DNA from: Deltaproteobacteria bacterium
GTDB lineage: Bacteria > Desulfobacterota > Desulfobulbia > Desulfobulbales > Desulfobulbaceae
DNA: 54,893 bases
Assembly (NCBI GenBank): GCA_013151365.1
Contig: JAADIK010000153.1
Location: 1-54,893 of the forward strand
Direction of reading: 5' to 3'
The notes below the pieces were generated by a model. It made no database searches. It saw only the letters and a program-made list of their open reading frames with translations, and was not told where the DNA came from. Positions 4,361-54,893 of this stretch are shown here, piece by piece; position 1 is the first letter of the stretch; each line of letters starts with the position of its first letter. The position numbers were made by a program, and so were the translations under genes.

Positions 4361-4473
4361 CTCGCCGGCCGGCGCGGTAAAGACCGGAGAATGCGCTTAT
4401 TCGTCAACAATACAATAAATTATTCCAAATATTGCATGAAATCATCAGCAACCGTCAACCGTCACGGATTCAA
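4361..4473 (-). repeat. family-1 element, truncated copy G (AT-rich half plus terminus)
   Basis: Matches the consensus from GGCGCGGTAAAGACC to GTCACGGATTCAAC. Its terminus supplies the last codons and the stop of the 4462..5499 gene. Confidence 0.7.
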
Positions 4474-5499
4474 CAACTCATCCCTGGCAAAGGCCACCAT
4501 CGCCGGATTTTCCGGCGGTGTCAGCTTCTCCATGCCCTCTTTCCGGCTCAACTCGCCGGTGCGGACCATATTGGCAATCTCCCAGACATAAGGATGGAAA
4601 CCATAGCGCTTCCTATGGATTTGGTTCGCATAGGCATTGAGAGTACAATTCGAAGAGTTCGGATCGGTGTCATCGGGGTGTTCCCAGCCAAGTTTGCCGA
4701 TACGTTCAACGATTTTATCTTCGTCATAATCGAGAAAGGCCAGCGGATGAATATTCCAGGGGAAGAATTCTTTACGCTCGAATTGTTTATCGGTAACAAA
4801 AAAAGGAAGAATCCGGTCGCCGCCGATCCGGTAAAGGGGTTTCATGGTAGCCTGCTGGGTATTTTTCATCAGGGCGGGATTGGTCCGCATAACGGACGAC
4901 TGAACCGGGGCCTGGCCGGGAGACCAGCCGAAACCGACAAAAGGAATCCGTTTTTCAATCGCGGTTCGCAGCACACTCCCCTTAACAAAACTGATACAAC
5001 TCGTACAGATCGTGCTCGCCCGTTCAAGGGTTTTGGCGGCATAAAGCTCGCGCACCGCCGCTGTCTTGAAAATGGTCCTGAGCATTTGCCGGCTTGGCCT
5101 GACGAGCAAATTATCAACTCCGAGGCTGTCGCAGACATTACTGATATTTTTAAAGGCCCGGGGAGAGACAAAGGTGTTATCCAGGGTCAGCGCCAACACC
5201 TTCAGCCGATATCGATTGACAAACACATCCAGGGTATAGGAGGAATCCTTGCCGCCGCTGTAGGCGACGATTACATCGTAGGCACCATTTCGTTCCCGCT
5301 CATCGAGAAGTTTCAGGAATTTTGTTTCATATTTCTTTTTCAGGGCGGCCCTGGCATCATCGCCCTTATAATGCCGGCAATGGTTGCAGACACCGTTTTC
5401 GTCAAAGGTAATGCCCGGAAATGTCGAAGGCAGCACACAATGAGAACAATACCGAAGTCGAGGTTGTTTTTCGTTCATCTCCTTCCTTTTCCGCACCAA
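4462..5499 (-). CDS. PP-loop ATPase, N-acetyl-sugar amidotransferase-like (WbpG/PseA-type)
   Basis: N-terminal zinc-ribbon CSHC...CNHC followed by the PP-loop SGGKDS. The last three codons and the stop (LNP*) lie in repeat copy G. Confidence 0.75.
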   Translation of the reverse strand: MVRKRKEMNEKQPRLRYCSHCVLPSTFPGITFDENGVCNHCRHYKGDDARAALKKKYETKFLKLLDERERNGAYDVIVAYSGGKDSSYTLDVFVNRYRLKVLALTLDNTFVSPRAFKNISNVCDSLGVDNLLVRPSRQMLRTIFKTAAVRELYAAKTLERASTICTSCISFVKGSVLRTAIEKRIPFVGFGWSPGQAPVQSSVMRTNPALMKNTQQATMKPLYRIGGDRILPFFVTDKQFERKEFFPWNIHPLAFLDYDEDKIVERIGKLGWEHPDDTDPNSSNCTLNAYANQIHRKRYGFHPYVWEIANMVRTGELSRKEGMEKLTPPENPAMVAFARDELLNP

Positions 5500-5501
5500 T
5501 G

Positions 5502-6401
5502 TTAAACCTGGGCCAGCAACACCCGGATGCTGCCGTTATGATCCAAGACTCTGCGGACCTGCCGGTAGTCGTATTTCTTCTTAAGCCGCCGCTCCATGGC
5601 CTTGCCCTGTCCCAGGCCGACTTCAAAGGCCAGCCAGCCGCCCGGCCGCAGAAAGACCGGCGCCTCGGTCAGCAGACGATGCAGGATCTTTACGCCAAAT
5701 GGCCCGCCATCAAAGGCCAGCCGGGGTTCATGAGCGGCAATTTCGTCAACCATCGTGCCGACTTTTGCAGTTGAGATATAAGGCGGATTACAGATCAGCA
5801 GGTGCACGTTACCATGAAATTCTTCCGCAGCAAAAGGGGCCAGCAAATCGCCTTCTCTCACCGTGACTTGATGTTCCAGGTGATGCAACTTTACATTCCG
5901 CCGGGCCAGGGCCACCGCTTCGCCTGATAAATCGGCGGCAAACACCCGGGCCCGCGGTTCATGCATGGCGATAGCGACAGCGAGATTGCCGGCCCCGGTG
6001 CAGACATCAATAATCCTTAAGTCAGCGTCTGTGGTGTCCGCCAGGAGCTCCAATGCGGCCCGGCCCAAAAGCTCGGTTTCCTGCCGGGGCACCAAAGCCT
6101 GCGGGCCGACCAGCATATCGACTCCCATAAATTGCTGCCAGCCGGTAATATGGGCCAAGGGGGTGCCACTCAAGCGTTGTGCGACCAGGCCAAGTAGGAC
6201 TTCGCCCTGGTCGGCGGTCAACTCCGGCACAGTCAAGGCCGCCACCGCCCCGGCTGACTTTGCGTCACCAGCGGCCTTGAACCACAGGGCCTTCAAGGTG
6301 GTCTCGGGGTTTTCTTCCGGTTTGTCCGGCAGCGTCTTTAATTCTTTCCGCAAGGCAACGAGAAGCCCGGCCCAGGTCTGATCCTTGTTCATACCCGCCA
6401 T
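5502..6401 (-). CDS. HemK/PrmC-family class I SAM-dependent methyltransferase
   Basis: SAM-binding motif IIDVCTGAGNLA and catalytic NPPY (ICNPPYIS). There is a 2-nt gap to the downstream gene and a 13-nt overlap with the upstream one. Confidence 0.75.
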   Translation of the reverse strand: MAGMNKDQTWAGLLVALRKELKTLPDKPEENPETTLKALWFKAAGDAKSAGAVAALTVPELTADQGEVLLGLVAQRLSGTPLAHITGWQQFMGVDMLVGPQALVPRQETELLGRAALELLADTTDADLRIIDVCTGAGNLAVAIAMHEPRARVFAADLSGEAVALARRNVKLHHLEHQVTVREGDLLAPFAAEEFHGNVHLLICNPPYISTAKVGTMVDEIAAHEPRLAFDGGPFGVKILHRLLTEAPVFLRPGGWLAFEVGLGQGKAMERRLKKKYDYRQVRRVLDHNGSIRVLLAQV

Positions 6402-7960: not shown

Positions 7961-8004
7961 CGTTTTTTCATCCCGGCTTCAGGGCGCGAATTCCCAGGAC
8001 CTGT

Positions 8005-10658: not shown

Positions 10659-10847
10659 CCTGGATCAGTGACGGCTTGAGGTGAGGTTCCATGCAATAGT
10701 GGAATTTATTGTATTATTGTCGAATAAATGTATTTCCTGGTCTTCACCGTGCCGCCCTGCGGGGCGCTCGAGAACGGCACATCTGCTGCGTTGGCAACTC
10801 GTTGCTGCCTTGCATTTGCACTGTTCTCGAACACTCACGGATTCAGG
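10659..10847 (+). repeat. family-1 element, copy A (both termini present, 29-nt internal deletion)
   Basis: Runs from CCTGGATCAGTGACGGCTTGAGG to TCACGGATTCAGG. It lacks the central hairpin segment found in copies B, C, D, E and L. Confidence 0.85.
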
Positions 10848-16687: not shown

Positions 16688-16763
16688 TGGCTCCTCGGGA
16701 CGGACTCGAACCGCCGACAGGGTGGTTAACAGCCACCTGCTCTACCAACTGAGCTACCGAGGA
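16688..16763 (-). tRNA. tRNA-Asn (GTT)
   Basis: Reverse complement TCCTCGGTAGCTCAGTTGGTAGAGCAGGTGGCTGTTAACCACCCTGTCGGCGGTTCGAGTCCGTCCCGAGGAGCCA. The anticodon loop is CTGTTAA. Confidence 0.92.
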
Positions 16764-16954: not shown

Positions 16955-17032
<78 letters not shown>

Positions 17033-18228: not shown

Positions 18229-18337
18229 GTCGTCCGGGATGGCGCGGTGAAGACCAGGGAATGTGTTTATTCTGCATATAATGCAACAAATTTCCCATAT
18301 TGCATGGAGTATCACCTCAAGCCGTCACGGATTCAGG
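18229..18337 (-). repeat. family-1 element, truncated copy F (AT-rich half plus terminus)
   Basis: Runs from GGCGCGGTGAAGACC to CCTCAAGCCGTCACGGATTCAGG and contains a perfect TATAAT. It ends 21 nt before ATG 18359. Confidence 0.7.
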
Positions 18338-18358: not shown

Positions 18359-20965
18359 ATGTCGCATGTTGAGACGAACACACCCAGACAGGAGAACTCC
18401 GTGCGGATAACCCAGCGCCCCCTGTTTTACTGGATTCTCCGGCGACACCGGCCGCTGCAGGTCCTGCTGCTGCTTGTGATCCTGGCCAGCCTCTTCTTCC
18501 GGGTCTTTCCCCTGGAGATGCAGAAACGAATCATCAACGAGGCCATCCACCTCAAGGATGAACAGCTCCTCTTCATCTACTGCGGCCTGTACATGGGCGC
18601 CGTGGTCCTGGCCGCTGTCTCCAAATACGCCATCAACGTCATGCAGACCGTTATCGGCCAGAAAATCCTGGTTGAGATGCGCAGCGAACTCTATCGTCAC
18701 CTCCTCCAGCTCCCCCTGCAGTTTTACCGCAAAGTACCGCCGGGAACAGTTATCTCGGCCATGACCGCCGAACTGAACGGCATCGGTTTTTTCCTCGGCG
18801 GCGCGCTGGCCATCCCGGTGACCAGCGTCCTGACCTTCCTGGTCTTTCTCGGTTTCATGTTCAGCCTGAGTCCGCTGCTGGCACTCCTCAGCGTCGTCAT
18901 CTACCCCCTGGAGATGATCGTCATCCCCCTGCTGCAAAAACGCTATAACCGGCTCAACAAAAAACGAATAAAAACCACCCGGGCCATGAGCAACGTCGTC
19001 AACGAGGGCGTCTCCGGCATCCAGGAGATTCACGCCAATGCCAGTTATCAACTGGAAGAAAAGCGAATGGCCGCCTTTATCGAGACCCTGTACAACATTC
19101 TCAAACGGCTCTTCATCGTCAAGTACGGCATCAAGTTCGCCAACAACATGTTCCAGTCGTTCGGCCCCTTTATCCTCTTCCTGGTCGGCGGCTACCTGAC
19201 CATCAACGGCCAGTTCACCCTGGGTGCCCTGGTGGCCTTTCTCTCCGCCTATGAAAAGGTGTACGATCCCTGGAAGGAGATGATGGAATATTACCAGGCC
19301 CTGCAGAACGCGCAGGTCCTCTACCGGCAGGTCATGAGCACCTTCGACCGGCAGCCGCGGCATCCGCTGCTGCCGGACGGCCGGGAGCCCTACCGGCTGC
19401 GGGGCAGCATCGAGCTGAAAGAGGTCTCTTGCACCGTGGACGGCGGCATCAAGGTCCTGGACCGGATCACCATGCAGATCCGCCCGAACGAGCAGGTGGC
19501 GCTGGTCGGTTTTTCCGGGGCAGGCAAGACCACACTCGTCCTGCTCATTGCCCAGCTCTACGATGCCGACCAGGGTTCGCTCCTCCTGGACGGCAAGGAG
19601 GCCGGCACGCTCAGCAAGGCCGATATCAGCCGCAATATCAGCATGATCGCCCAGCAGCCGTTCATCTTTACCGGCAGCCTCCGCGACAACCTTTTGTACG
19701 CGGTCCGGGCCGACCGGAGTGCCGACGGCCGCGAGCTGCCGGGCCGGGAACAGCTTTTCCAGGTGAGCCGCGATGTCGGCCTGGAAGAAGACCTCCTGCG
19801 CTTCGGCTTTAACAGTATCATCCCCAGGGAGCGCGTTCTGCCGCTCAAACAGAATTTTTTGCATATGCGCCGGATCATCCGGAAAGAACTGGGAGAGCAC
19901 TTTGTCGGCGTGGTTGAATTCTATGACGCCGACACCTTCCTTTCTTACTCATCCCTGCGGGACAATATCATTTTCGGCGAGAGTCCCGGCGGCGAGTATG
20001 ACATCGACGAGCTGCCGGATAACCCGGTTTTCAGAGATTTCCTCGGCCGGAGCGGACTGGAGCCGGAGCTGCTGCGCCTGGGCCGGGCCCTGGCCGAAGC
20101 CACCGTCGAGCTGCTCAAAAAAATCGGGGACGATGAATTCTTTTTCCGCGGCAGCCCCATGGAGGCGGACGAATTCGACCGCTACAAAAAGCTGGTTGAC
20201 GACCTGGACGGTCGGCAGCCGCAAAAAAAGGAAGAAAAGGACGCCCTCCTCCTGCTCGCCCTGCGCTTTATTCCCGGACACCATACCATCGTAACCATGC
20301 CGCCCGGCCTGGCTGAAAAAATCCTGCAGGCCCGGCACCGCTTTCTCGAACAGATCGCGGGCATTGACCTGAAGACATACCGCCGGGCAGAGGAACGGCC
20401 CCGGGGCCGGACCGGAGCCACCGCTTTGCCGCAACGCGCCGGGGACTCCGGGGCAGGCGGCGACTTCATCGCCTACTGCCCGTCGGAATACCTGTACAAG
20501 CACAGCCTGCGCGACAATATCCTTTTCGGCGCAACGACCCGGGAGGCCCGCGACGTGGAAGGCCTGTACGAGGTGACCAAACAGGCCTTTGCCCGGGAGG
20601 GACTCCTGGACGAAATCCTGGACATCGGTCTCGATTTCGAGGTGGGCAGCAAAGGAGACCGGCTTTCAGGCGGGCAGAAGCAAAAGGTGGCCATTGCCCG
20701 AGCTCTGCTCAAAGACGCGCCGATTCTGATCATGGACGAGGCCACGTCCAGCCTGGACAATACCTCCCAGGCCCGAATTCAAAAACTCCTGGAGACCAGG
20801 TACCGGGGCAACAAGACGATTATTGCCGTCATCCACCGCCTTGACCTGGCCCCTTCCTATGACCGGATCTTTGTCCTCAAGGCCGGGTCCCTGGTCGAAC
20901 AGGGAACCTATGACGAACTGATGGCCCAAAAAGGAGCGTTTTATGAACTCGCCCGGAAACACTGA
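18359..20965 (+). CDS. ABC exporter (fused TMD-NBD) with a greatly expanded nucleotide-binding domain
   Basis: Six-TM exporter domain, Walker A GFSGAGKTT, signature LSGGQKQ, Walker B ILIMDEATS and H-loop VIHRL. I count about 376 residues between Walker A and the signature. Alternative start is GTG 18401 with an AGGAG RBS. Confidence 0.85.
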   Translation: MSHVETNTPRQENSVRITQRPLFYWILRRHRPLQVLLLLVILASLFFRVFPLEMQKRIINEAIHLKDEQLLFIYCGLYMGAVVLAAVSKYAINVMQTVIGQKILVEMRSELYRHLLQLPLQFYRKVPPGTVISAMTAELNGIGFFLGGALAIPVTSVLTFLVFLGFMFSLSPLLALLSVVIYPLEMIVIPLLQKRYNRLNKKRIKTTRAMSNVVNEGVSGIQEIHANASYQLEEKRMAAFIETLYNILKRLFIVKYGIKFANNMFQSFGPFILFLVGGYLTINGQFTLGALVAFLSAYEKVYDPWKEMMEYYQALQNAQVLYRQVMSTFDRQPRHPLLPDGREPYRLRGSIELKEVSCTVDGGIKVLDRITMQIRPNEQVALVGFSGAGKTTLVLLIAQLYDADQGSLLLDGKEAGTLSKADISRNISMIAQQPFIFTGSLRDNLLYAVRADRSADGRELPGREQLFQVSRDVGLEEDLLRFGFNSIIPRERVLPLKQNFLHMRRIIRKELGEHFVGVVEFYDADTFLSYSSLRDNIIFGESPGGEYDIDELPDNPVFRDFLGRSGLEPELLRLGRALAEATVELLKKIGDDEFFFRGSPMEADEFDRYKKLVDDLDGRQPQKKEEKDALLLLALRFIPGHHTIVTMPPGLAEKILQARHRFLEQIAGIDLKTYRRAEERPRGRTGATALPQRAGDSGAGGDFIAYCPSEYLYKHSLRDNILFGATTREARDVEGLYEVTKQAFAREGLLDEILDIGLDFEVGSKGDRLSGGQKQKVAIARALLKDAPILIMDEATSSLDNTSQARIQKLLETRYRGNKTIIAVIHRLDLAPSYDRIFVLKAGSLVEQGTYDELMAQKGAFYELARKH

Positions 20966-21467
20966 GCACGGGGCTTCGCCCGGCCGCGGCAGTCTCGAGG
21001 AAAACATGGCCTTTCTACGGCGCCAGCCCGTCTTTGCCGACATACCGCTTGAAATGCTTCGGCTTTACGCCTACCTCTCTCAAAGAGAGCGCTTTCAAAA
21101 AGACGAGCCGATCATCAGGCAGGGTGAGCCCGGCGACCGCATGTACCTCATCATGACCGGCACGGTGGCCGTCTGCGAAAAGTATAACGGCCGTGAATGC
21201 CTGTTGCAGACCCTTGCCGCCGACGGGTTCAACTCTTTCGGTGAGCTTGCTCTGCTGGCCGAGTTCGACTGGTTTTACTCGGCCAGGGCGGTGACGGACG
21301 TGACCCTGCTCTCCATTACCAGGGAGGCCTTTCGCAAGGTCCTGGAGCAATATTCCGAACAGTATTCCGAGGCGGTTGCCGACATTGTCCGGTGGCGGAT
21401 CAGGCGCTTCGTCGATCAGACGCACGCCCTGCTCGACCAGTCGGCACAAGAGAACCTGAATCCGTGA
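20943..21467 (+). CDS. cyclic nucleotide-binding domain protein
   Basis: cNMP-binding fold signature FGELALL...ARAVTDV. It overlaps the ABC gene by 23 nt (alternative start ATG 21006). The last codons and stop (LNP*) lie in repeat copy B. Confidence 0.75.
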   Translation: MNSPGNTEHGASPGRGSLEENMAFLRRQPVFADIPLEMLRLYAYLSQRERFQKDEPIIRQGEPGDRMYLIMTGTVAVCEKYNGRECLLQTLAADGFNSFGELALLAEFDWFYSARAVTDVTLLSITREAFRKVLEQYSEQYSEAVADIVRWRIRRFVDQTHALLDQSAQENLNP

Positions 21468-21672
21468 CGGCTTGAGGTACTATTCCATGCAGCATGTGGA
21501 TTTTATTGTATTATTGTCAAATAAATGCATTTATGGTCTTCACCGCGCCGCCCTGCGGGGCGCCCGATAACGGCGCATCTGCTGCGTTGGCAACTCGTTG
21601 ATATCACACCAGGATAATCAACCTCGTTGCCGCCTTGCATCTGCACCGTTCTCGAACGCTCACGGATTCAGG
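21455..21672 (+). repeat. family-1 element, full copy B (218 nt)
   Basis: Perfect 13-bp terminal inverted repeats CCTGAATCCGTGA / TCACGGATTCAGG. An AT-rich left half is followed by a GC-rich right half with hairpins. Confidence 0.9.
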
Positions 21673-25406: not shown

Positions 25407-25627
25407 ACTGAATCCGTGAGCGTTCGAGAACGGTGCAGATGCAAGGCGGCGACGAGGTTGATTATCCTGGTGTGATATCAACGAGTTGCCAACGCAGCGC
25501 AGATGCGCCGTTCTCGGGCGCCCCGCAGGGCGGCGCGGTGAAACCGGAAAATGCGTTTATTCAGCATATAATACAATAAATTCCATATATTGCATGAAAT
25601 ATTACCTCAAGCCGTCACGGATTCAGG
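25407..25627 (-). repeat. family-1 element, full copy C (221 nt, inverted orientation)
   Basis: Both termini are present (left ACTGAATCCGTGA). It has 2 extra nt in the GCATCTGC segment and sits in the tatC/serS divergent region. Confidence 0.9.
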
Positions 25628-27989: not shown

Positions 27990-28208
27990 CCTGAATCCGT
28001 GACGACTTGAGGTGGTAATCCATGCAATATATGGAATTTATTGCCTTGTTGTTGAATAAACGCATTTTCCGGTCTTCACCGCGCCGTCCTCCGGGGTGCC
28101 CGATAACGGCGCATCTGCTGCGTTGGCAACTCGTTGATATCACACCAGGACAATCAACATCGTTGCCGCCTTGCATCTACACCTTTCTTGAACACTCACG
28201 GATTCAGG
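27990..28208 (+). repeat. family-1 element, full copy D (219 nt)
   Basis: Perfect 13-bp termini. It is flanked by CAC on both sides if the outermost C is excluded. The left end lies 34 nt from the ddl ATG. Confidence 0.9.
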
Positions 28209-33866: not shown

Positions 33867-34071
33867 CCTGAATCCGTAACGGCTTGAGAAAACCCCATGC
33901 AATATGCGGAATCTATTGCATTATTGCCGAAAGAATGCATTTCCTGTTCTTCACCGCGCCGCCCGATAACGGCGCATTTGCTGCGTTGACAACTCGTTGA
34001 TATCACACCAGGATAATCAACATCGTTGCCGCCGTGCATCTACACCGTTCTCGAACGCTCACGGATTCAGG
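33867..34071 (+). repeat. family-1 element, copy E (205 nt, 12-nt GC-hairpin deletion)
   Basis: Both termini are present (left CCTGAATCCGTAA). It lacks the segment between the GCGCC direct repeats. Confidence 0.9.
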
Positions 34072-41206: not shown

Positions 41207-41454
41207 CTTTTTTCCTGCTTATCTCTATTTAAAAAAACCGGCCATATGACTAAAAAAGGTACCCATGCACCCGGTCCTTAGGACTGCCTTGCGCACACTC
41301 GAAGCTGCCGGGTGTTTGTTAAAAACCAGCTTCGTTCAAACTCTCGGAGTCTACGCTACTATGTATTTTCGCTCAACTCCTTTATCGATATCTTCGGCAG
41401 TTCAGTTGCAAGTCAAGTGGAAAATCCCTTAAAATCACCTCTTAAGAAACGACC

Positions 41455-41489
41455 AAAGCCGGATCCATTGGATCCGGCTTTTTATTTTC
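41455..41489. terminator. strong hairpin with T-run on the plus strand (orphan or bidirectional terminator)
   Basis: AAAGCCGGATCC-ATT-GGATCCGGCTTT followed by TTATTTT. No annotated plus-strand gene lies upstream. Confidence 0.5.
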
Positions 41490-41689
41490 AAAGGATTGAA
41501 TGGAAATGAGGGAAAGATACTGCGTGCGAGGCCAGCATCAGGCGTTTGATCGAGATTACCGGGACGTATCCGGGGAGGATGTCAATCGTCAAATTAATGT
41601 CAGGGACAGCATCTCACATCATTACAGCATGCATACTGCCCCCGAAGCCGCTAAAATCATGGCATAAATCGAGCTGCGCCGATTACATT

Positions 41690-43624
41690 CTATTGGGCGC
41701 TTGAAGTAAAAACCATGTAGCCGATAACTTCTTTTCGATGAGCAGCTTTCCTTCTGGAGGTTTCCTCCTCGACTTTGACCTGCACATCCTTTGCGGTTAG
41801 ATTCTGATACCTGACTGTTGCATTATTGCGCCCGCGGTAGCCCTGGATCCCGGCAAAGAAAAACGGTTTTGCAGTGAAGGGTGACCGAAAAGACAGCGAA
41901 TGCCACTTGTCCGAAACAGACTTACGTGTCCGGCCGACTTCATAAAGGAGTTGACCGATAGCCCCCGTTCCCTGTTCACAGGCAATATAGCCGACCGTTT
42001 CAATGACATGCCTGGGGAGCCGGTTCGCGTCCTGTCCCTTGAGTTTAAATTTAAACTTCCGCCTTGAAAGTCCTCTGATCCGACCATTTAGCGCACCTTC
42101 CTCGTTGTTTGACAAAACACTGGTGAGCAATACGGGTTTGCGCCGGAAGGCCTTGATGAATTTATGCTTCTTGAAACGAGCACCGCCGAAAAAGGTGCCG
42201 GCTTCGACGCGGGCTCCATTATCCAGGATGTAGCTCCCTTGTTCCATAACAATATAATCGACCGTTTCTTCCGCATGGGAGCCGTCAAGATAACCCCATT
42301 CCTGAATACGGATGTCAAAACCTGTTGCCGTGACATTTCTGATGCGGACGACCGCCGGATCGGGGTCATTATAACTGAGCGGGCCAGCGACAACAACTGG
42401 GTTGACAAACGACTCTTTAAAAACCACATGAGACCAGCTGGTGTTGAGCAACAGCTCTCCGAGTTCAACCGCCAGCGAGGGATTCGTGACACCGGAGCGC
42501 ACCGTAACAACGGTTGAAGACTCGCTTACCGCTCCTTTGTTATCTTTTACCTTCAGGGTAACCGTATAAGTAGCGGCCTGCTTATAGACATGATCAACCG
42601 CAACACCGGACCTCCGGGTGCCATCGCCGAAATTCCAGGTGTATTTCTTGATCTTACCATCAGAATCACTTGAAGCGCCGGCGTCAAAACTGATAGCGAC
42701 AGGCGCAAAGCCCTGGCTGGTCGAGGCGGTGATGACCGCGGTGGGCGGGACGTTGCGGTTGCTGCCAGCCGGGGGTTCCCTGACAATAACCGGGGTGGAA
42801 ATGGAATCGGTCAAGCCGCCATCATCTGTTACGGTCAGCGTGGCGTTAAAACTGCCGGCAGTGGTGTAGGTATAGGTCACCTTGGGGCCGGTGGCTGTCC
42901 CGCCATCGCCCATATCCCACTTATAAGAGAGAATGGTACCGTCGCTGTCCGTGGAACCTGAGCCATCAAGATGCACCTGCAATGGCGCATCACCGACCGT
43001 GGACGAAGATGAAACAACCGCGGTGGGAGGGATATTGCTACTTGAAGGACTGGTAACCACAATCGCAACTGTTGCCTGGTCCGTGGCTCCCTGGTCGTCG
43101 GTAATTTTCAGGGTAACGTTATAACTGCCAGCCGGGCTGAAGACATGGCTGATGGTACTGCCGACACCTGTTTCACCATCACCGAAGGTCCAATCATAAC
43201 TGAGGATATTTCCCGTTGAAGAATTCGCATTAAAGGCCACAGTCAGAGGGCTTGTACCTTTCAGCACGTCAGCAGACAGAACCGCCTTGAGAACGCTCGA
43301 AAAAACATAAGGAAAGGGGGCGGATGGCGGGCTTTCCGTGCCGTCCTTAAAATAGGAGGTAAGGGTGAACAGTGATTCTCCGTCAGGAACGTCAACAGAA
43401 CAATCCATGGAAGTAGCGTCGGGGTCGGCTATTTCACAGGCAAGATTATTTCCGTGATACAAACGGAATCCGGCCAGATTGTCGCCGTTATGCTGATATT
43501 GCCACTCAACATGAATAACACGTTGATGGGCCGATGCCAGAACGGGCAGAATTAGGATGCTCAATAAGATTAAAAAAATTTTTCCAAATCGCATAAGAAC
43601 GCCATAAAATAAAACGGATAACAT
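41690..43624 (-). CDS. secreted protein with an FN3-like module, three PKD domains and three C-terminal H-type-lectin-like repeats
   Basis: Signal peptide. There are three W.FGDG PKD signatures (YDWTFGDG, YKWDMGDG, YTWNFGDG). The C-terminus has a threefold repeat ending in VDYIVMEQG, VGYIACEQG and IGYMVF. Confidence 0.8.
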   Translation of the reverse strand: MLSVLFYGVLMRFGKIFLILLSILILPVLASAHQRVIHVEWQYQHNGDNLAGFRLYHGNNLACEIADPDATSMDCSVDVPDGESLFTLTSYFKDGTESPPSAPFPYVFSSVLKAVLSADVLKGTSPLTVAFNANSSTGNILSYDWTFGDGETGVGSTISHVFSPAGSYNVTLKITDDQGATDQATVAIVVTSPSSSNIPPTAVVSSSSTVGDAPLQVHLDGSGSTDSDGTILSYKWDMGDGGTATGPKVTYTYTTAGSFNATLTVTDDGGLTDSISTPVIVREPPAGSNRNVPPTAVITASTSQGFAPVAISFDAGASSDSDGKIKKYTWNFGDGTRRSGVAVDHVYKQAATYTVTLKVKDNKGAVSESSTVVTVRSGVTNPSLAVELGELLLNTSWSHVVFKESFVNPVVVAGPLSYNDPDPAVVRIRNVTATGFDIRIQEWGYLDGSHAEETVDYIVMEQGSYILDNGARVEAGTFFGGARFKKHKFIKAFRRKPVLLTSVLSNNEEGALNGRIRGLSRRKFKFKLKGQDANRLPRHVIETVGYIACEQGTGAIGQLLYEVGRTRKSVSDKWHSLSFRSPFTAKPFFFAGIQGYRGRNNATVRYQNLTAKDVQVKVEEETSRRKAAHRKEVIGYMVFTSSAQ

Positions 43625-43671
43625 TAAGTTGAAAAATCATACCTGAAGTCACCTACTCTATAGCATTTATC

Positions 43672-44127
43672 GTGCCAAGAAGAGACAACCACCAACTTAC
43701 TGTTTTCACGTACAAACAAACATCAATGGCAAAACGATGCAATTACCATTACGTAATCGCTATTGCCAAGGACATACTATGCGGAGAGCAGAGAGCATAC
43801 AGTAAAGACGAAATCCGCATACACTGCAAACCTGAAGGATCGGAAAAATTTCCTCTTAATGTAAATCGATCATCGGTTCCGGCGTTCGCCCATATACCGG
43901 AAGTGACTGTAATGATTGCCGCCATGGCCGGACCGTGGCATTTCACCAAGCGGAATCGCATTTTGGAAAACCAGGCCGGTTCAGAAAAAAAACATTCTTC
44001 CGGGATACACTATCAACAAATAATTGCGCATCATCCTGAACCGGATGCGTTGTCTCCAAAAAGAGACTCCTTATTCAGGCAGTCAATCTTAAAACCCTTT
44101 GAACACACCAAAAACCTGAATCAGTGA
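43672..44127 (+). CDS. hypothetical ORF (doubtful)
   Basis: 151-aa ORF in a relatively AT-rich 620-nt gap. No recognisable motif. Its stop is supplied by the terminus of repeat copy H. Confidence 0.2.
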   Translation: MPRRDNHQLTVFTYKQTSMAKRCNYHYVIAIAKDILCGEQRAYSKDEIRIHCKPEGSEKFPLNVNRSSVPAFAHIPEVTVMIAAMAGPWHFTKRNRILENQAGSEKKHSSGIHYQQIIAHHPEPDALSPKRDSLFRQSILKPFEHTKNLNQ

Positions 44128-44235
44128 GCGTTCAAGAACGGTGCAGATGCAAGGCGGCAACGATGCCGATTCTTCTATGTAATATCAATGAGTTACCGAC
44201 ACAACAGACGCGCCGTTACCGGGCGCCCCGGAGGG
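44115..44235 (-). repeat. family-1 element, truncated degenerate copy H (GC-rich half)
   Basis: Runs from CCTGAATCAGTGAGCGTTCAAGAACGGTGCAGATGCAAGGCGGCAACG to GGGCGCCCCGGAGGG. It ends 12 nt before the MshEN gene stop. Confidence 0.75.
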
Positions 44236-44247
44236 ACACCATCTCAA

Positions 44248-45042
44248 TTAAATGCCTTGTGGATTGGTCATGGCCCAAGAAAGCCATTTGAGCTGGATGG
44301 CTGAAAAATCATCCTTTTTTGAATTAAGAAATTTTTTGAGAGATTTTGTATCATTAAAGGTGACGGAATAATATCCGGAAGAATATGAACCATGGCCAAA
44401 AAGAGACACTTTGTTCTGGTCATTAAAACCAAGGATCAGTTCATGATTCGCATAGGTAATCGAATGTGGGAAAACGGTTACATTGCCGTACTCCATGCGT
44501 TTTCGATCCTGATAAAACTGCATGGCAGTAAAAATAACCATGAGAAGAGCAATGGCGGTGGCGGCAGCCGTCAGCCGCAAAGAAGCCTGCGAGTTGAAAA
44601 TATCCCGAAATGACCAAGGAATACGTGAACGTATATTTGATTCAATATCACTTTTCGGAGCCAGTACGGGTTGGATTATTTTGCCGGTGTACTTTTCAAT
44701 ATCCGAAACGGCTTCACTATCGGAAGGGTCAACCATTGCTACTTTCAGGGTATTGTTTTCTCCGGTCATCAGAGGGATGACGCTGTATTTCTTACAAAGA
44801 TATTTTGGCAGGACTTTCTTGACGGTCGGGGAGAATTCCGACGCGACATCAACAATCTCCAGATCCAATTGGCGCGACAGGACCGAATGAAGTTGATCCT
44901 CGCTGATAAAACCCATTTTAATAAGGAGATAACCAAGCCTGCGGTTTCCCCCGACCTGGAGACGAAGAGCCTTGCCCAGATCAGTTTCGGTGATCAGGTT
45001 GGCTTCAACAAGGAGTTCACCAAGACGTTGTTTGGCTGCCAT
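44248..45042 (-). CDS. MshEN (T2SSE_N) domain membrane protein, putative c-di-GMP receptor
   Basis: Two tandem 24-residue motifs, RLGELLVEANLITETDLGKALRLQ and RLGYLLIKMGFISEDQLHSVLSRQ. These are followed by a TM segment and a C-terminal domain of unknown function. Confidence 0.8.
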   Translation of the reverse strand: MAAKQRLGELLVEANLITETDLGKALRLQVGGNRRLGYLLIKMGFISEDQLHSVLSRQLDLEIVDVASEFSPTVKKVLPKYLCKKYSVIPLMTGENNTLKVAMVDPSDSEAVSDIEKYTGKIIQPVLAPKSDIESNIRSRIPWSFRDIFNSQASLRLTAAATAIALLMVIFTAMQFYQDRKRMEYGNVTVFPHSITYANHELILGFNDQNKVSLFGHGSYSSGYYSVTFNDTKSLKKFLNSKKDDFSAIQLKWLSWAMTNPQGI

Positions 45043-45562
45043 AACTTGCCCTCATTACATAAATTACCCAAACGAAATAAATCGACTTTCCGCCAAAATC
45101 TCCGGACATGGAGACCCTTCACCATACTCGGCCGGCGGTTTTGGTTGTTCCGTCAAAACAGTTTCGGCTCCCTGCTGACAGCAGGACGGATACCTAAATC
45201 TTGTCAATTTCCGCTTACCCCCGGGAACTGGCGCCACTGCAAAATACTTTTTTTACATATTGGCTGGATTTCGTTATCATTCTTAATATATTATATGATA
45301 CACAGTAAAAGCTGACAAGAAAATAGGATATATGGCTGCAAATAAAAATGTTTTCTCGATAAATCAGGGCAATTTCTCTTGAATTACATTTCCTATTTCA
45401 CGTGCAGGGCTCGTAAATAAGACGACCAGGCCCTGCTGAAATCTGTTGATTATACTTGTTACGTGTTCAGAACCGGACATTGAAGCGTTTTGTTCTCATC
45501 ATTATCGTCCACAAAAGAGGTGCTTTCAGAAAATATTTTATAAGACTATCAACAGTTATCAG

Positions 45563-45701
45563 CCTGAGAAATTACTTGTATCCGTGACGGTTCGAGGTAA
45601 CACTCCATGCAATATATGGAATTTATGGCATTATTGCTGAACAAACGTATTTTCTGGTCCTCAACGCGCCGCCCACCGGGGCGCCCGATAACTTATTCAG
45701 G
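45563..45701 (+). repeat. family-1 element, internally deleted copy I
   Basis: The left terminus is interrupted (CCTGA-12 nt-ATCCGTGACGG). The AT half and GC hairpin run to CGATAAC, then join directly to TTATTCAGG. The copy ends 23 nt before ATG 45725. Confidence 0.7.
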
Positions 45702-45724
45702 AAATATCCAGGGAACCAAATGAG

Positions 45725-47194
45725 ATGATACGGAAGAAACTGAATTGCTGGGAGGTTATGAAATGCGGCCGGGGACCGGGCAAGTTACTGTCCGGCAAAA
45801 TGGAGGTCTGCCCGGTTGCCACTGAAAGGCGTCTTGACGGCAAACACGGCGGCAGGCAGGCCGGCAGGGCATGCTGGGTTGTGGCCGGTACATTCTGTGG
45901 CGGTAAAGTACAGGGGACCTTTGCCAAGAAATTTAACGCCTGCAAAACCTGTGTCTTTTATAAAAAGGTCCTGGAGGAGGAGGGCGATGACTTCCAAAAG
46001 CCTTTCGCCCTCTTGAAACGACTCAAGAAACCTGCCAGAATCGTTGATATATCTACAAAAAAGTTTGGCGTGCTCATCGGCGGCTCCGGCCTGATCGGCG
46101 GCGAGCTGATGCATTATTTCAAGACCGAGACCAAAAATGAAGTCGAGGTCCTGGCCCCGAACAGTAAACGCCTGAGCCTCAGGGAACCCGAGGATATCCG
46201 GCTCTATTTTCAAAGATACAAACCCGACTTCATCATTAATGCGGCCCTGGCCGCCATTGACAGTGACGCCCAGATTTCCTACGAGGTCAACTACCTGGGC
46301 AGCATCAACCTGGCCAAGGCCGCCATGGCCTTGAAAATCCCCTATATCCACTTCAGCTCGGCCGCCGTTCTGCCGATGGGCGAGAATCTGACGGAAGAGG
46401 ACCATGTGCCGCTGACGGCGGATCTCCCCTTTTATCCCCGGTCTAAACTGATGGCCGAAATGAGCCTGCGAAACCTGCAGGAGACCCGGGGACTTGATTG
46501 CACGATCATCAGGCTGGGCGTGGTTTACGGCAAGCATGATCATAAAATCCAAGGATTTCACCGGCTGCTGTTTTCCGTCGCCACCCAGGCCATGCCCTTC
46601 ATGATGACCAGACGGGGGGTGCTGCATTCCTATTCCAACACCAGGAAGATCCCGCCCTTTGTCCATTATATCTTAGAACATCGCGGGGAGTTTTCCGCTC
46701 AGACCTATAATTTCGTCGACAGGAATCCAATCGAGCTGAGCCAACTTATTTTTGCGGTAAAATCCTACCTGGAACTCAAGAGCCCCAGAGAGCTGTACCT
46801 ACCCTATCGCCTGACGAAATTCGGCAAGATCTGCCTGCTCTTTCTGCTCCGGAAGCTGGGCCGTATCGGTGTCGAGGTCCGGATGCCGGCGGAGTTGATG
46901 TTCTTGGAATATTTCTATAAAACCCAGATTCTATCGATCGAAAAACTGCAGAAATCAAGTTACGGGAACCGGCATTCGGAGCTGAGCGTCTATACCGAGT
47001 TGCCTGATATTATCGATTACTACTGCAAAAGATGGCAACACCTCAACCTCATCTCGCATGGCAAATCCGAGATATATGACGGAGCCCGGAAGGGCATTAC
47101 CGAATTTATCCAGAGTCCGCAAAACCTGATCAACGATATCCACCAAGGAAAGGCTGACTATTTCGCTGATTTCGATTCTCTCAACGACGAGTAA
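45725..47194 (+). CDS. two-CW domain fused to an NAD-dependent epimerase/dehydratase (SDR) domain
   Basis: The N-terminus reads NCWEVMKCGR...CPVA...GRACWVVAGTFCGG...CKTCVFY (two CW motifs, Cys-rich). A Rossmann motif GGSGLIGGEL follows, then an extended SDR body. Confidence 0.8.
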   Translation: MIRKKLNCWEVMKCGRGPGKLLSGKMEVCPVATERRLDGKHGGRQAGRACWVVAGTFCGGKVQGTFAKKFNACKTCVFYKKVLEEEGDDFQKPFALLKRLKKPARIVDISTKKFGVLIGGSGLIGGELMHYFKTETKNEVEVLAPNSKRLSLREPEDIRLYFQRYKPDFIINAALAAIDSDAQISYEVNYLGSINLAKAAMALKIPYIHFSSAAVLPMGENLTEEDHVPLTADLPFYPRSKLMAEMSLRNLQETRGLDCTIIRLGVVYGKHDHKIQGFHRLLFSVATQAMPFMMTRRGVLHSYSNTRKIPPFVHYILEHRGEFSAQTYNFVDRNPIELSQLIFAVKSYLELKSPRELYLPYRLTKFGKICLLFLLRKLGRIGVEVRMPAELMFLEYFYKTQILSIEKLQKSSYGNRHSELSVYTELPDIIDYYCKRWQHLNLISHGKSEIYDGARKGITEFIQSPQNLINDIHQGKADYFADFDSLNDE

Positions 47195-47297
47195 AAAAGT
47201 CGGGCGGGGGAAAGCAGGAGCGTACTTCCTGCCGGCGCGGCGTCGGCAGCAGGGTGCCTGATTGAACAGGCATACGGCCAGGAAAAAAATTATTGCG

Positions 47298-48476
47298 TTA
47301 TGGCTTTTGTTTACTTTGCCGCACCAGGACGACAATGGCACCGGCGGCAAGAGCGGCACTCAGGATAAAGGCGGTTGCGGCCCCCCATAGCTCCCAGACC
47401 ACGCCGAACAGAAAGGCGCCGGGCAGGGCGGCCAGGCCTATGGTCATGTGATACAGGCCATAGGCCGTGGCCCGCTCATCACGGCGGGCCAGATCGCCGA
47501 TCAGGGCGCGTTCCGCGCCTTCAGTCGAGGCCAGAGCCGCCGCATAGCCCAGGAAGAGTATCCACACCAGGTCGGCACTGTGGTGGAGGCTGGTATAAGC
47601 CAGGGCCAGCAGCAGGACAATGCGCAGAGACCAGCCGACCAGCAGGGCCGGTACGCGGCCGAAATGATCAGAGAGGCTGCCGGCCGGTGCGGCAAGCAGG
47701 GCCTTGACCGCACTGGCCGCCGCCCAGATTAGCGGTACCCAGGCAATCCGCAGCCCCTGGTCTGCGGCCCAGAGAACCAGGAAGGCCTCCGGGGCGCTGG
47801 CCAGGGCGAGACAGCCGGTGGCCAGGATCAGGCCGCGCAAACGGGAATCAAGAGCAGACCAGCGCAGGGGCGGCAGGGAAGGAAGCCGGCCGGCCGGGGG
47901 CCTGACCTCCGCCCCTTGCAGGCCGAAAAATAAAAGCATGACGGCCAGGAGACCGGGGATCAGGGACCAGAGAAAAACATGGCCCATGGGCAGGCCGTGC
48001 TTAAGTAAAAGATAGGCGCAAAGCGAGCCGAACATGGCCCCGGCATTATCCAGGGCACGATGAAAGCCAAAGGCCCGGCCACAGCGGGCGCCGTCGACCG
48101 AGCCGGCGATAAGTGCGTCCCGCGGCGAAGTACGAAGCCCCTTGCCCGCCCGGTCGAGAAACCGCAGCAGCAGAACCCAGGGCCAGCCCAGGGCCAGGCC
48201 GATCAGGGGGCGGGCGGTATTGGACATTCCGTACCCGCCCAGCACCAGCCGCTTATGATTCCAGCCCCGGTCCGCCATGTATCCGGAAAAGAGCTTGAGC
48301 AGACTGGCCGTGGCCTCGGCCGTGCCTTCCACCAGCCCCACCACGGCCGGCCCGGCGCCAAGGGCGGCTGTTAAAAACAGGGGCAACAGCGGAGTTATCA
48401 TCTCACTGGACGTATCATTGAGAAAGGAAACAAGGCCAAGAACCAGGACAGTGCGCGGCAGAAAGGAGGTCTTCAT
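47298..48476 (-). CDS. MFS transporter
   Basis: 12-TM-like hydrophobic profile of 392 aa with an N-terminal LVSFLNDTSSEM motif. Confidence 0.8.
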   Translation of the reverse strand: MKTSFLPRTVLVLGLVSFLNDTSSEMITPLLPLFLTAALGAGPAVVGLVEGTAEATASLLKLFSGYMADRGWNHKRLVLGGYGMSNTARPLIGLALGWPWVLLLRFLDRAGKGLRTSPRDALIAGSVDGARCGRAFGFHRALDNAGAMFGSLCAYLLLKHGLPMGHVFLWSLIPGLLAVMLLFFGLQGAEVRPPAGRLPSLPPLRWSALDSRLRGLILATGCLALASAPEAFLVLWAADQGLRIAWVPLIWAAASAVKALLAAPAGSLSDHFGRVPALLVGWSLRIVLLLALAYTSLHHSADLVWILFLGYAAALASTEGAERALIGDLARRDERATAYGLYHMTIGLAALPGAFLFGVVWELWGAATAFILSAALAAGAIVVLVRQSKQKP

Positions 48477-48628
48477 CAGCTTGTCCTGATCAGGACCGGC
48501 ATGAATTCAATGGTGGGCACGTTGCGCCAGGGTGACTTCTTCTCCGGTTTTCCCCCATTTGACCCTCCGAACGGCCTCATCCAAAAAAACCCTCGCAATC
48601 AATGGAGATTACGAGGGTCGTATCGATA

Positions 48629-48705
48629 TGGTGGCGATGCAGGGAATTGAACCCCGGACACTACGGATATGAGCCGTATGCTCTAACCATCTGAGCTACA
48701 TCGCC
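48629..48705 (-). tRNA. tRNA-Met (CAT); elongator Met versus lysidine-Ile not distinguishable
   Basis: Reverse complement GGCGATGTAGCTCAGATGGTTAGAGCATACGGCTCATATCCGTAGTGTCCGGGGTTCAATTCCCTGCATCGCCACCA. Position 1:72 is paired, so this is not an initiator. Confidence 0.9.
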
Positions 48706-51141: not shown

Positions 51142-51169
51142 ATAATAGTGATGGTTTTCGAAAAATCAA
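51142..51169 (-). promoter_or_regulatory. candidate sigma-70-type promoter of groES-groEL
   Basis: On the minus strand, TTGATT-N16-TATTAT lies about 130 nt upstream of the groES ATG. No CIRCE inverted repeat was found. Confidence 0.3.
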
Positions 51170-51254
51170 GGGAGAGGGGAGAAAAAAACACATATCTCTT
51201 AATTTATTGAAATTAATAATCTATTTGACTAACGATTTACTCAGGAACAAGTTC

Positions 51255-51334
51255 AGGAATCGGCACCCGGCTTCGGGTTGAATTACGCGATTCATGATCG
51301 ACGAAAGACCGCCCGAAGCCGTCACGGATTCAGG
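51255..51334. repeat. family-1-derived mini-hairpin M (two inverted termini, about 80 nt)
   Basis: The right arm CCCGAAGCCGTCACGGATTCAGG is a family-1 terminus. The left arm CAGGAATCGGCACCCGGCTTCGGG is its degenerate inverted copy. Confidence 0.55.
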
Positions 51335-51382
51335 GTGAAAGTATTCCCGGGCAACCCCAAGGGGCAACTTGAGCCCGGCCGG

Positions 51383-52468: not shown

Positions 52469-52560
52469 CTTTTTTTATCCTGTTCTGTAAAGCGATTTTC
52501 TTTTTCAGCCAGAGAGAGTACAATAAATCCAGCGCTCATCCAGAAACGGCCTTCTTGCCC

Positions 52561-52675
52561 GATCTCGGCGTTATCGGGCGGCGCGGGGAAGGCCGCAAAA
52601 TGAGTTTATTTGCCGATAATGCAATAAATTCCATATATTGAGCAGGGCGCCACCTCAAGCCGTCACGGATTCAGC
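52561..52675 (-). repeat. family-1 element, truncated copy J (AT-rich half plus terminus, lacks 12-nt hairpin)
   Basis: Runs from GGCGTTATCGGGCGGCGCGG to CCTCAAGCCGTCACGGATTCAGC. It ends 32 nt before ATG 52708. Confidence 0.75.
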
Positions 52676-52707
52676 ATGATTCATGTCGTTGCCGGACACA
52701 AAAACTG

Positions 52708-53847
52708 ATGCAGCATACCAAGCAGGTTAAACAGGCTCAAGACCATCCTTCACCTGGCCGGCTGCCGGGTTCGCCTCGAGAAAAGCGGCCGCTCAATTCG
52801 GTTCAGGTCAGGTATTTCCTCCTGATTTTTTTCGCCGCCATCGTGCTGCTCGGCCTGGTTTTGTCGCCGTTCTGGCAGCTCCTGATCCTGGCCTTTCTCC
52901 TGGCGGGAATTTTCCGGCCTCTCTATTCCTGGCTCAGCCGCTGGATTTCGTCATGGACGGCGTCCATGTTGACCTGCACCCTGATCGTGGTAATCGTCTT
53001 TGTGCCGATGACCTTCTGTATCGGCGTCCTGTCATCGGAGGCGCTTAACCTGTATTCTCTGGGCAGGGACAGCAACCTGCTACTCAAACTGCATCATTTT
53101 ATCCAGAATAATACATTGGTGGGAGAGGCACAAGGGGTACTCGCCGGCTTCGGCATAAATTTCGACCCGGCGGATATAACCCGGATGCTATCGAACCTGG
53201 CCGGCAAAATCGGACTCTTTGTCTACAACCAGGCCTCGATCTGGGCCGCCCATATTATGAGCTTTGCCCTGCAGTTCTGTATCCTCATCCTGGTGGTATT
53301 TTTCCTTCTCATTGAAATGGAGCGCTTCCTCCGGTTTCTGATGAAGCTCTCGCCACTGCCCAATGATCAGGATGAACTGCTGCTGCACAAGTTCATGGAA
53401 ATTGCCGGGGTCATCCTGGTCGGCAACGGTATCAGCGGGGTCTTCCAGGGAACAATGGGCGGAGCCCTTTTTGCCGTGCTGGGACTCAAGTCACCGGTTC
53501 TCTGGGGCTCGGTCATGGCGATCCTGGCCTTTCTGCCCATCTTCGGCATCGGCCTGGTGCTGCTTCCCACGGCGGCCGTCCTGATGCTGTACGGTCATAC
53601 CGGCCAGGCCATAATCACGGTCGTTTTTTACCTGATTCTGTCGTTATCGGTGGAGTACCTGCTTAAACCAAAATTTGTGGGCAGTCATATCAAGATGCAT
53701 ACCCTGCTGGTTTTCCTGGCCATTATCGGCGGCATGAGCGTGTTCGGGATATGGGGGATCATCTATGGTCCTCTTATCGTCACGGCCTTCCTGGCCTTGT
53801 CCGACATGTATCTGAACGAGTATCGGCCATATCTGGATAAGACCTGA
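52708..53847 (+). CDS. AI-2E family transporter (PerM-like permease)
   Basis: Multi-TM protein of 379 aa with AI-2E-like conserved blocks. Its stop codon TGA is the first TGA of repeat copy K. Confidence 0.85.
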   Translation: MQHTKQVKQAQDHPSPGRLPGSPREKRPLNSVQVRYFLLIFFAAIVLLGLVLSPFWQLLILAFLLAGIFRPLYSWLSRWISSWTASMLTCTLIVVIVFVPMTFCIGVLSSEALNLYSLGRDSNLLLKLHHFIQNNTLVGEAQGVLAGFGINFDPADITRMLSNLAGKIGLFVYNQASIWAAHIMSFALQFCILILVVFFLLIEMERFLRFLMKLSPLPNDQDELLLHKFMEIAGVILVGNGISGVFQGTMGGALFAVLGLKSPVLWGSVMAILAFLPIFGIGLVLLPTAAVLMLYGHTGQAIITVVFYLILSLSVEYLLKPKFVGSHIKMHTLLVFLAIIGGMSVFGIWGIIYGPLIVTAFLALSDMYLNEYRPYLDKT

Positions 53848-53917
53848 ATCCGTGGCGGCGCGAGGTGGCATTCCACGAACAGATTGCAATTTATTGTATT
53901 ATTGTCGGCCGAACGCC
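53843..53917 (+). repeat. family-1 element, truncated copy K (left terminus plus part of the AT half)
   Basis: CCTGAATCCGTGGCGGCGCGAGGTGG...TTTATTGTATTATTGTCG. Confidence 0.7.
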
Positions 53918-53948
53918 TAAAAAGACGTGACCGGACAAGCCGGGGCCG

Positions 53949-54650
53949 TTACGGGTCCGAAAGATAGGAGGTGAATAAATGGCGGATTTCGTCCAAATGA
54001 TCTTCGATGATAAACGGCATAAGGTGGGTAATCATATCCAGTAAAATAACGGCATTGACCGAGGAATCGGTTTGAGTTGCACTCCTGACGCGTTCCGCGA
54101 CCTTCTTATTTATCAAATGCAGATTGGCATAAATCTTTTTCAGCCCGTCGAGTTCCAGATCATTTTTTTTCCCTGCTTTGCGCAAAAAATACTGGGCCAG
54201 GAAATACATGCCGGCCGCCCTGAAAATAGTGTCTTCTTTTGACGCCAACGGCAGGTGGAAACGGGCCATCGGCTTCAGGTAGGCGGTATGGGGACAGCCG
54301 CTCGCGGCAAAGAGAAGGCCGAGCAACGAGCTAATGCCTCTTTGCACGGTCGTGTGCTGGGACACATGTCTTTCGTCCGTGATCACCTCCAGGTCAACTT
54401 TATCATGGGAAAAGACATGATCGAATCGGCCGATGACAAGAGCCAGGTTCACGGCAACCGGGCAGTCAGGATATTCCTTGCCGTCAAGAGGACAATGCTG
54501 GCATTGATGAAACTCGAGCCTGGTCCAGGACGGCAGATTCCGGCAGGGTACATTGATCACCTCGAGACTGCGGGCGTCGAGTTGCAGATCAAAGACCTCA
54601 TGCCGCTCCTGGCCGAGGTTGAAACAGTAGCGAATTTTTATTTCGTCCAT
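53949..54650 (-). CDS. conserved hypothetical Cys/His-rich protein
   Basis: 233-aa ORF with good coding appearance. It carries a CRNLPSW...HQCQHCPLDGKEYPDCP cluster (possible metal site). No family recognised. Confidence 0.55.
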   Translation of the reverse strand: MDEIKIRYCFNLGQERHEVFDLQLDARSLEVINVPCRNLPSWTRLEFHQCQHCPLDGKEYPDCPVAVNLALVIGRFDHVFSHDKVDLEVITDERHVSQHTTVQRGISSLLGLLFAASGCPHTAYLKPMARFHLPLASKEDTIFRAAGMYFLAQYFLRKAGKKNDLELDGLKKIYANLHLINKKVAERVRSATQTDSSVNAVILLDMITHLMPFIIEDHLDEIRHLFTSYLSDP

Positions 54651-54683
54651 ATCAGGCCTATATTACTCATGTCAACCAAATCT

Positions 54684-54893
54684 ACTGAATCCGTGACGGC
54701 TTGAGGTGTTATTCACGCAATATGCGGAATTCATTGTATTATTGACAAATAAGCGCATTCCCTGGCTTTCACCGCGCCGCCCTGCGGGGCGCCCGATAAC
54801 GACACATCTGCTGCGTTGGCAACTCGTTGATATCACACCAGGATAATCAACCTCGTTGCCGCCTTGCATCTGCACCGTTCTCGAACGCTCACG
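54684..54893 (+). repeat. family-1 element, copy L (cut by the window end)
   Basis: Begins ACTGAATCCGTGACGGCTTGAGG and runs to GAACGCTCACG at the window edge. By eye its GC half differs from copy B at only 2 positions. Confidence 0.9.

Follow-up and report, generated by a model that had tools for sequence, protein, structure and literature searches.

The stretch of DNA considered here is the 54,893 nt of contig JAADIK010000153.1 (hereafter the window), from an uncultured member of the Desulfobulbales. Fifty of its larger open reading frames (ORFs), when scanned against Pfam, match only housekeeping and other non-transposase families, including EF-G (fusA), asparagine synthase (asnB), ispH, an ABC exporter, a cNMP-binding protein, tatC, serS, ddl, a FAD oxidase, groES/groEL, an AI-2E transporter and MFS transporters, and none of them is a transposase or integrase, in agreement with an original prediction made from the letters of the window alone. 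Lying mostly between these genes is a short repeat bounded by terminal inverted repeats (TIRs), which is the subject of this study. We find that it is a miniature inverted-repeat transposable element (MITE), an ordinary kind of selfish DNA now dispersed over the chromosomes of uncultured bacteria of the sulfur cycle. It is a mobile, non-autonomous DNA transposon whose termini, target-site duplications (TSDs), empty site, copy number, spread across species and deletion subfamilies with duplications of their own can all be observed directly.

Copies of the repeat in the window and in related genomes

The ends of the element are CCTGAATCCGTGA and TCACGGATTCAGG, and its unit is about 219 bp long. 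The 13-mer CCTGAATCCGTGA has 19 matches in the window at up to 2 mismatches, against 1.5 +/- 1.2 (maximum 4) in dinucleotide-preserving shuffles. With a profile hidden Markov model trained on five window copies, nhmmer detects 12 of the 13 copies of the original prediction at E<1e-8 (the values running from 1e-8 to 1e-77), and the thirteenth, at 51255-51334, is recognized by one perfect terminus followed by a decayed body of ~80 bp. The copies or remnants, and one empty site described below, are as follows.

4358..4474, minus strand: left-half-only remnant (profile positions 3-109), nhmmer E=1.6e-18, terminus degenerate (GTTGAATCCGTGA)
10659..10847, plus strand: full copy of 189 bp, 29 nt deleted internally, nhmmer E=2e-58, perfect TSD CTCTA
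18235..18337, minus strand: left-half remnant with perfect left terminus, profile match, between divergent ispH and ABC-transporter genes
21455..21672, plus strand: full 218-bp copy, both 13-bp termini perfect, flanks GAGAA/GGGAA matching at 4/5 positions
25407..25627, minus strand: full 221-bp copy, reversed, profile match, between divergent tatC and serS
27990..28208, plus strand: full 219-bp copy, both termini perfect, profile match, between divergent ddl and FAD-oxidase genes
33867..34071, plus strand: full copy of 205 bp, lacking 12 nt of the central hairpin, profile match
44115..44235, minus strand: decayed right-half-only remnant (profile positions 98-219), profile match
45123..45127, no strand: empty target site CATAC, from pairwise alignment of the window with BMS3Bbin14 locus L081
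45575..45701, plus strand: short form of ~127 bp, left half and central hairpin fused directly to the final ~11 nt of the right terminus, profile match
51255..51334, minus strand: ~80-bp derivative upstream of groES, one perfect terminus, far end decayed, terminus match
52567..52675, minus strand: left-half remnant, nhmmer E=5e-21
53843..53916, plus strand: 74-nt left-end remnant, profile match
54684..54893, plus strand: full copy running off the end of the window, nhmmer E=8e-67

Six long copies align end to end, with 25407-25627 inverted. Summed, the copies come to 1991 bp or 3.6% of the window, within the 3.5-4% (~2 kb) that had been estimated, and the coordinates first given for them were correct within a few bases. 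The TIRs had been described as perfect over 13 bp, which holds for both termini only in 21455-21672 and 27990-28208, the other copies having 1-2 mismatches. The terminus of 18235-18337 sits 21 nt upstream of an ATG at 18359, and the remnant at 4358-4474 is located ~230 nt upstream of the first of four tRNA genes in the window (4054-4126(-), 16691-16763(-), 16955-17029(+) and 48632-48705(-)).

Positions 41298-48608 of the window are 88-93% identical to contig NODE_2 of 'bacterium BMS3Bbin14', and the window is therefore part of the chromosome of a close BMS3Bbin14 relative. A 21-nt degenerate terminus, searched for in one genome of each GTDB species, yielded at least 100 loci, and all but one of the 100 listed are from metagenome-assembled genomes (MAGs) of Desulfobulbales or Desulfurivibrionaceae type, the remaining one being a chance match. 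Across the window and these 100 loci (~770 kb, 14 genomes) the profile gives 175 matches, of which 76 are full, 36 left-part and 58 right-part. More than 160 additional copies are thus found in different gene contexts across 13 other assemblies, the family being carried by at least 13, and BMS3Bbin14 has at least 83 copies in 41 8-kb blocks. That the repeats might be a local duplication or an artefact of assembly limited to this contig, for which their high local density and nothing else would speak, is refuted by this many copies elsewhere in 13 independent assemblies, with sequences and flanks that differ from copy to copy.

The modal length of the element is 219 bp, and copies with perfect duplications range from 40 to 295 bp. 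Duplications accompany each of the size variants of 40, ~125, ~157, 244 and ~275 bp: the 40-bp copies are palindromes of just the two TIRs; in the ~125-bp short forms the central hairpin, with the left half before it, runs straight into the final ~11 nt of the right terminus, and this same junction is found at many loci; the 244-bp forms have a 25-nt insertion in the right half; and the ~275-bp forms have a different left interior. MAG lineages have the left TIR (19 nt) and the entire right portion in common, and their left interiors are unrelated. The 25-nt insertion, CGAAGGTCTCGCAGGCTCGCTATC, is common to two MAG species in a variant of 244 bp or longer (L021 4390-4633, L038 5885-6127, L045, L067 2268-2511, L074, L012 and L054), and this longer form may be ancestral, closer to the parent element. 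A 153-bp variant (L013 3075-3227) consists of two right ends inverted (an R-R palindrome), with flanks ACTCT/ATTCT matching at 4/5 positions. In the SPAdes MAG C14-07 many contigs break off within the element, 54-64 nt into its conserved right end (L003, L008, L011, L022, L025, L061 and L079).

Outside these genomes the family was sought in several ways. A blastn search of 72,556 PLSDB plasmids with the consensus gave chance matches only, none at the termini, and searches of the literature on MITEs in Desulfobulb*, on BMS3Bbin14 and on the terminal 12-mers found nothing relevant. In viral contigs, one of the exact terminal 19-mers had a single chance match in a coding sequence and the other had none. 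The 18-nt degenerate TIR pattern CCTGAATCCGTGASSSYT occurs in more than 120 viral contigs and was rejected, all its occurrences being chance matches inside one conserved phage gene (CCTGAATCCGTGACCGCTTTCCAGAC...) of a heavily sampled prophage group (L101-L220) that is unrelated to the MITE.

Target-site duplications and empty sites

Pairing of facing termini 30-400 bp apart in the window and the 100 loci gave 101 bounded elements. Perfect 5-bp TSDs flank 60 of the 101, where 0.1 would be expected, and in a further 16 the flanks match at 4/5 positions; registers shifted by 1-3 nt, taken as a control, gave 0-4 matching flanks. The duplicated sites are 82% A+T, as compared with 44% in the surrounding DNA.

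A comparison with the ~90%-identical genome of BMS3Bbin14 provides a filled and an empty site. BMS3Bbin14 carries a 220-bp copy with AATAC on both sides, CATAATAC|CCTG...CAGG|AATACTCGG, at a place where the window reads CACCATACTCGG (45120-45131), so that the ends of the element are CCTG...CAGG and the duplication is 5 bp long; the search for empty sites in relatives that had been proposed for this repeat was thus successful. A second orthologous intergenic region contains the element in MAG B4G8CH4-05 and lacks it in BMS3Bbin14 and C14-07. The short copy at 45575-45701, in turn, is shared with BMS3Bbin14 (L081 2910-3021) and its divergence is similar to that of its flanks, so that it is an old shared insertion, while the BMS3Bbin14 interval orthologous to the remnant 44115-44235 holds unrelated sequence. 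Exact-protein look-ups of three window proteins, made with a view to polymorphism at the level of strains, gave no record.

The element has no conserved ORF and no 3-nt periodicity. Together with the TIRs, the TSDs, the empty site and the copies elsewhere, this bears out the earlier suggestion that the repeat is non-autonomous and MITE-like. It also makes it scarcely credible that the repeat is a repetitive extragenic palindrome of the REP/REPIN kind, spread by a single-copy RAYT (Y1/HUH) enzyme and not by a DDE transposase. Such an origin would suit a dense, mostly intergenic and strongly palindromic repeat with 40-bp copies made of TIRs only and no transposase found adjacent to it, but it is contradicted by the 5-bp duplications and the simple insertion at the empty site, and no Y1/HUH transposase gene is present among the window ORFs scanned against Pfam. 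To our knowledge, REP/REPIN elements create no target-site duplications.

The candidate transposase and the conserved right half

The termini had not at first been recognised as those of a known insertion sequence (IS) family, but their beginning matches that of IS1380-family elements. Elements of this family were taken from plasmid records and their ends determined in the present analysis.

IS1678: 1678 bp, termini CCTGAATAATTCATA, TSD GATAG
L. plantarum (Lactiplantibacillus) IS1380-family member: 1649 bp, termini CCTGAATTATTCA, TSD TTTAT
ISEcp1: 1656 bp, termini CCTAGATTCTACGT / CCTAAATTCCACGT (CCTAGAT/CCTAAAT)
ISKpn23-like element, four sites: ~1.66 kb, termini CCCGCATTCCCC / CCGACATTCCCC, 5-bp TSD at 3/4 sites (TTGCA/ATTAT/TTCTT)

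The first 7 nt of the terminus, CCTGAAT, are identical in the MITE, IS1678 and the L. plantarum IS, and a 5-bp direct repeat has also been reported for IS1247 of the same family (PMC3281130, Table 2). This terminus and a 5-bp duplication, both present in the MITE, together are a signature of the IS1380 family, and because of them an IS1380-type transposase acting in trans is the likely driver of the MITE. The ISKpn23-like element is very abundant in public metagenomes, with 8000 candidates at E<=1e-20 and one 90% cluster of 2167 members (loci L228-L231, proteins P0001-P0120). An internal sequence of these elements, CCTGAATCCG, was considered as a terminus matching that of the MITE and rejected, as the comparison of four sites places the real ends at the termini given above.

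The body of the MITE is conserved very unevenly. Among the copies of BMS3Bbin14 and the window the left interior is 76% identical, the right ~125 nt 92% and the TIRs 92-96%, while between lineages the respective values are 42%, 85% and 94-96%; the 13-bp termini are more than 92% conserved across 57 copies. The right portion folds as an imperfect hairpin of ~100 nt. Its z-score when folded as RNA is -4.2 for the reverse strand, which runs inward from the right end, and -3.0 for the forward one, as compared with ~0 for the left part. Over the 57 copies 95.9% of cells in the long hairpin pair, and two-sided changes occur at 12 pairs, against 3.7 +/- 1.3 in column shuffles (0/500) and 4-7 with slid partners, a covariation that is to be read in the light of the copies being related and the tested structure being derived from one aligned copy. 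When read on the reverse strand, the pair columns include four with a consensus G·U and none with A·C, and the minority cells include 65 G·U as against 27 A·C. The possibility that the conserved half is a relic of coding sequence was rejected, since every frame contains stops and 3-nt periodicity is lacking. When the ends of the four IS1380-family elements were folded in search of a comparable long hairpin, hairpins were found at several of them.

Taking these results together, we consider it highly probable that the repeats are MITE copies in an uncultured Desulfobulbales-type chromosome, moved in trans, most likely by an IS1380-family transposase. A DDE transposase supplied in trans would bind both termini, and the element would integrate into an A+T-rich 5-bp target that is duplicated upon insertion; this enzyme we infer to be of the IS1380 family (Pfam DDE_Tnp_1_4, PF13701). 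The right ~125 nt would be what is left of an end of the parent IS, or a cis element of that end which remains in use, and may have been kept since the copies derive from, or compete for, the machinery of that IS. The reading of the right module that we prefer is that it is perhaps a structured non-coding end of the parent IS, for instance a transposase mRNA leader, and not a host regulatory RNA.

Several observations weigh against this explanation. The link to IS1380 consists of a 7-nt terminal motif and the length of the TSD, with four IS1380-family lineages sampled, and the terminus of the ISKpn23-like element differs (CCCGCAT). No match was obtained when the four IS1380 transposases were compared by tblastn with the window and the 100 loci, and the same ~770 kb contain no long TIR-bounded unit with a transposase: termini paired up to kilobases apart gave as sole candidates one unit around the gene of an FMN reductase (L004) and another around that of a TPR protein (L029), and an all-versus-all blastn of the loci gave no multicopy segment of IS size. 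A scan of metagenomes for the TIR, a gap of 195-225 nt and the conserved N-terminal motif of LSSDGGL type returned two false positives, and a homology search with the ISKpn23-like transposase gave only a near-identical marine clade among the matches listed. Within one genome, moreover, the right half is 92% identical and the left interior 76%, a difference that neutral decay of a selfish element does not predict. Finally, short forms without the right half still have target-site duplications, so that insertion does not strictly require this half.

With the partner transposase not found in the window, the 100 loci or the metagenome pattern scan, and the assignment to IS1380 indirect, one may ask whether the MITE was derived from, or is mobilised by, another family with a TSD of ~5 bp, such as the Tn3-derived inverted-repeat miniature elements (TIMEs) or IS of ISAba11/IS701, IS1634 or ISH3 type. 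TIMEs are likewise non-autonomous, insert in A+T-rich DNA with 5-6-bp duplications and have derivatives that flank passenger DNA, but their inverted repeats, 38 bp long, are homologous to the ends of Tn3-family elements, and they mostly occur as single copies (PMC4133298). The element described here, with a TIR that is perfect over 13 bp and imperfect over ~20-25 bp and with dozens of copies in a genome, is set apart by the published description of TIMEs. As the first 7 nt of the terminus are also identical to those of two IS1380-family elements, in a comparison of termini that covered the IS1380 family only, we regard an origin in one of these other families as unlikely.

The conserved hairpin raises a different question, namely whether the element, or its right ~125 nt, has been retained as a structured RNA or single-stranded DNA (a leader, an RNase target or a small RNA module) on a mobile shell, with its density partly due to selection. 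A structured RNA or DNA module had been proposed from the outset as the alternative to a MITE, and of this proposal the conserved, covarying right hairpin stands, with its strong reverse-strand fold and its preference for G·U over A·C, as does the high identity of the right portion within and between species (85-92%, against 42-76% for the left interior). The rest of the evidence does not point to a role in the host. In tandem gene contexts 18 copies have the same orientation as the genes and 17 the opposite one, so that no bias is present; divergent, convergent and tandem spacers hold 26, 17 and 35 elements, near the background of 92, 80 and 193; right halves decay, as at 44115-44235; and no consistent promoter or terminator consensus is present inside the copies. 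It is for these reasons that a host-level role is disfavoured. Nor does Rfam provide a match: at the gathering threshold only the four tRNAs of the window are reached, and a relaxed scan of copy 21455-21672 gave one match at chance level (E=0.14, 16 bits versus a gathering score of 40). Covariation among related copies, in a structure taken from one aligned sequence, may moreover have arisen in the parent IS lineages rather than in the MITE. We therefore hold retention for such a function to be decidedly unlikely. A related and bolder proposal, which we regard as doubtful, is that the ~125-nt right module has a function, specific to one strand, as a structured RNA or as single-stranded DNA, either as a cis element that enhances or controls mobilisation by an IS1380-type enzyme or as an RNA leader co-opted by the host. 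If this were true, the family would persist and amplify in genomes without a conventional autonomous copy, driven by a single-copy or domesticated transposase.

Neighbouring genes, known systems and meaning

The copies had been described as all intergenic, which is nearly the case. The left terminus CCTGAATCCGTGACGGCTTGAGG contains TGA in each of the three reading frames (positions 3, 11 and 19), and two Pfam-supported genes stop at a TGA inside the left TIR, that of the cNMP-binding protein (20943-21467) and that of the AI-2E transporter (52708-53847), the latter at TIR positions 3-5 of copy 53843-53916. Since these TGAs are used as stops by two genes, insertions have rewritten the last codons of host genes. 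Of the 234 termini at all loci taken together, 48 supply the stop of an open frame that is 100 codons or longer.

The upstream side of genes was considered as well. The sole sigma-70-like match in a copy, TCAACA-18-TATATT (28026-28055, minus strand), lies in the left half of 27990-28208, is directed outward to ddl and is not kept in other copies. The idea that left halves act as promoters of co-oriented genes was rejected, as the spacers are mostly divergent, which leaves the test empty, and the larger sample is unbiased in orientation. The idea that termini provide Shine-Dalgarno sequences for downstream genes was likewise rejected; single cases exist, and the statistics were not above a control that was itself flawed. 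There is no evidence here of promoter or terminator rewiring by the element.

Two larger arrangements involve the termini. At L004 14-1097 (BMS3Bbin14 NODE_6) the gene of a 191-aa NADPH-dependent FMN reductase (PF03358, E=4e-34) has a left half of the element on one side (14-125) and a right half on the other (967-1097), in the manner of a passenger cassette. In this bracketing of a gene the unit resembles mobile insertion cassettes and composite MITE transposons, but no 5-bp duplication flanks it (ATAAA to the left, TTGTA to the right) and no such unit occurs in the window; two copies may have been rearranged with one another here, in which case the unit would not be a mobile cassette. At L029 1913-3464 (MAG CWP5-2.bin.54) two solo termini 1552 bp apart face outward, and between them lie the gene of a TPR_21 protein and, nested there, a full copy (3037-3254). 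Beside each of these termini, at ~9 nt, is the start codon of a neighbouring gene (panC-like and xseA-like).

In comparison with known systems, the element resembles the IS1380-family ISs (IS1678, ISEcp1, IS1247 and ISKpn23) in that its termini start with CC and it makes a 5-bp TSD, and differs from them in being ~219 bp long without an ORF, where they are 1.65-1.68 kb with a DDE_Tnp_1_4 transposase, and in its TIRs past position 7. It resembles other bacterial MITEs (Correia, RUP, ERIC and Nezha-type) in being small, TIR-bounded, multicopy, mostly intergenic and non-autonomous, with internal hairpin potential, but has no sequence relationship to them. It duplicates 5 bp of A+T-rich DNA, whereas many MITEs typically duplicate a TA dinucleotide (PMC4133298).

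The repeat looks like an undescribed high-copy MITE family of an uncultured Desulfobulbales lineage, for which no match was found in Rfam, in the PLSDB plasmids or in the searchable literature. The kind of element is already known: it is a classical bacterial MITE, with nothing that departs from established transposon biology, and specialists in mobile elements would find none of it surprising. Its copy density is notable, and the strongly conserved hairpin-forming half is its sole unusual feature. For the study of these organisms, the repeat explains the frequent contig breaks in their MAGs, and insertions that differ between ~90%-identical genomes are a marker for populations. For the IS1380 family, to which the MITE is likely linked, the asymmetric conservation of its two halves offers a handle on the cis sequences or RNA structures that the family uses.

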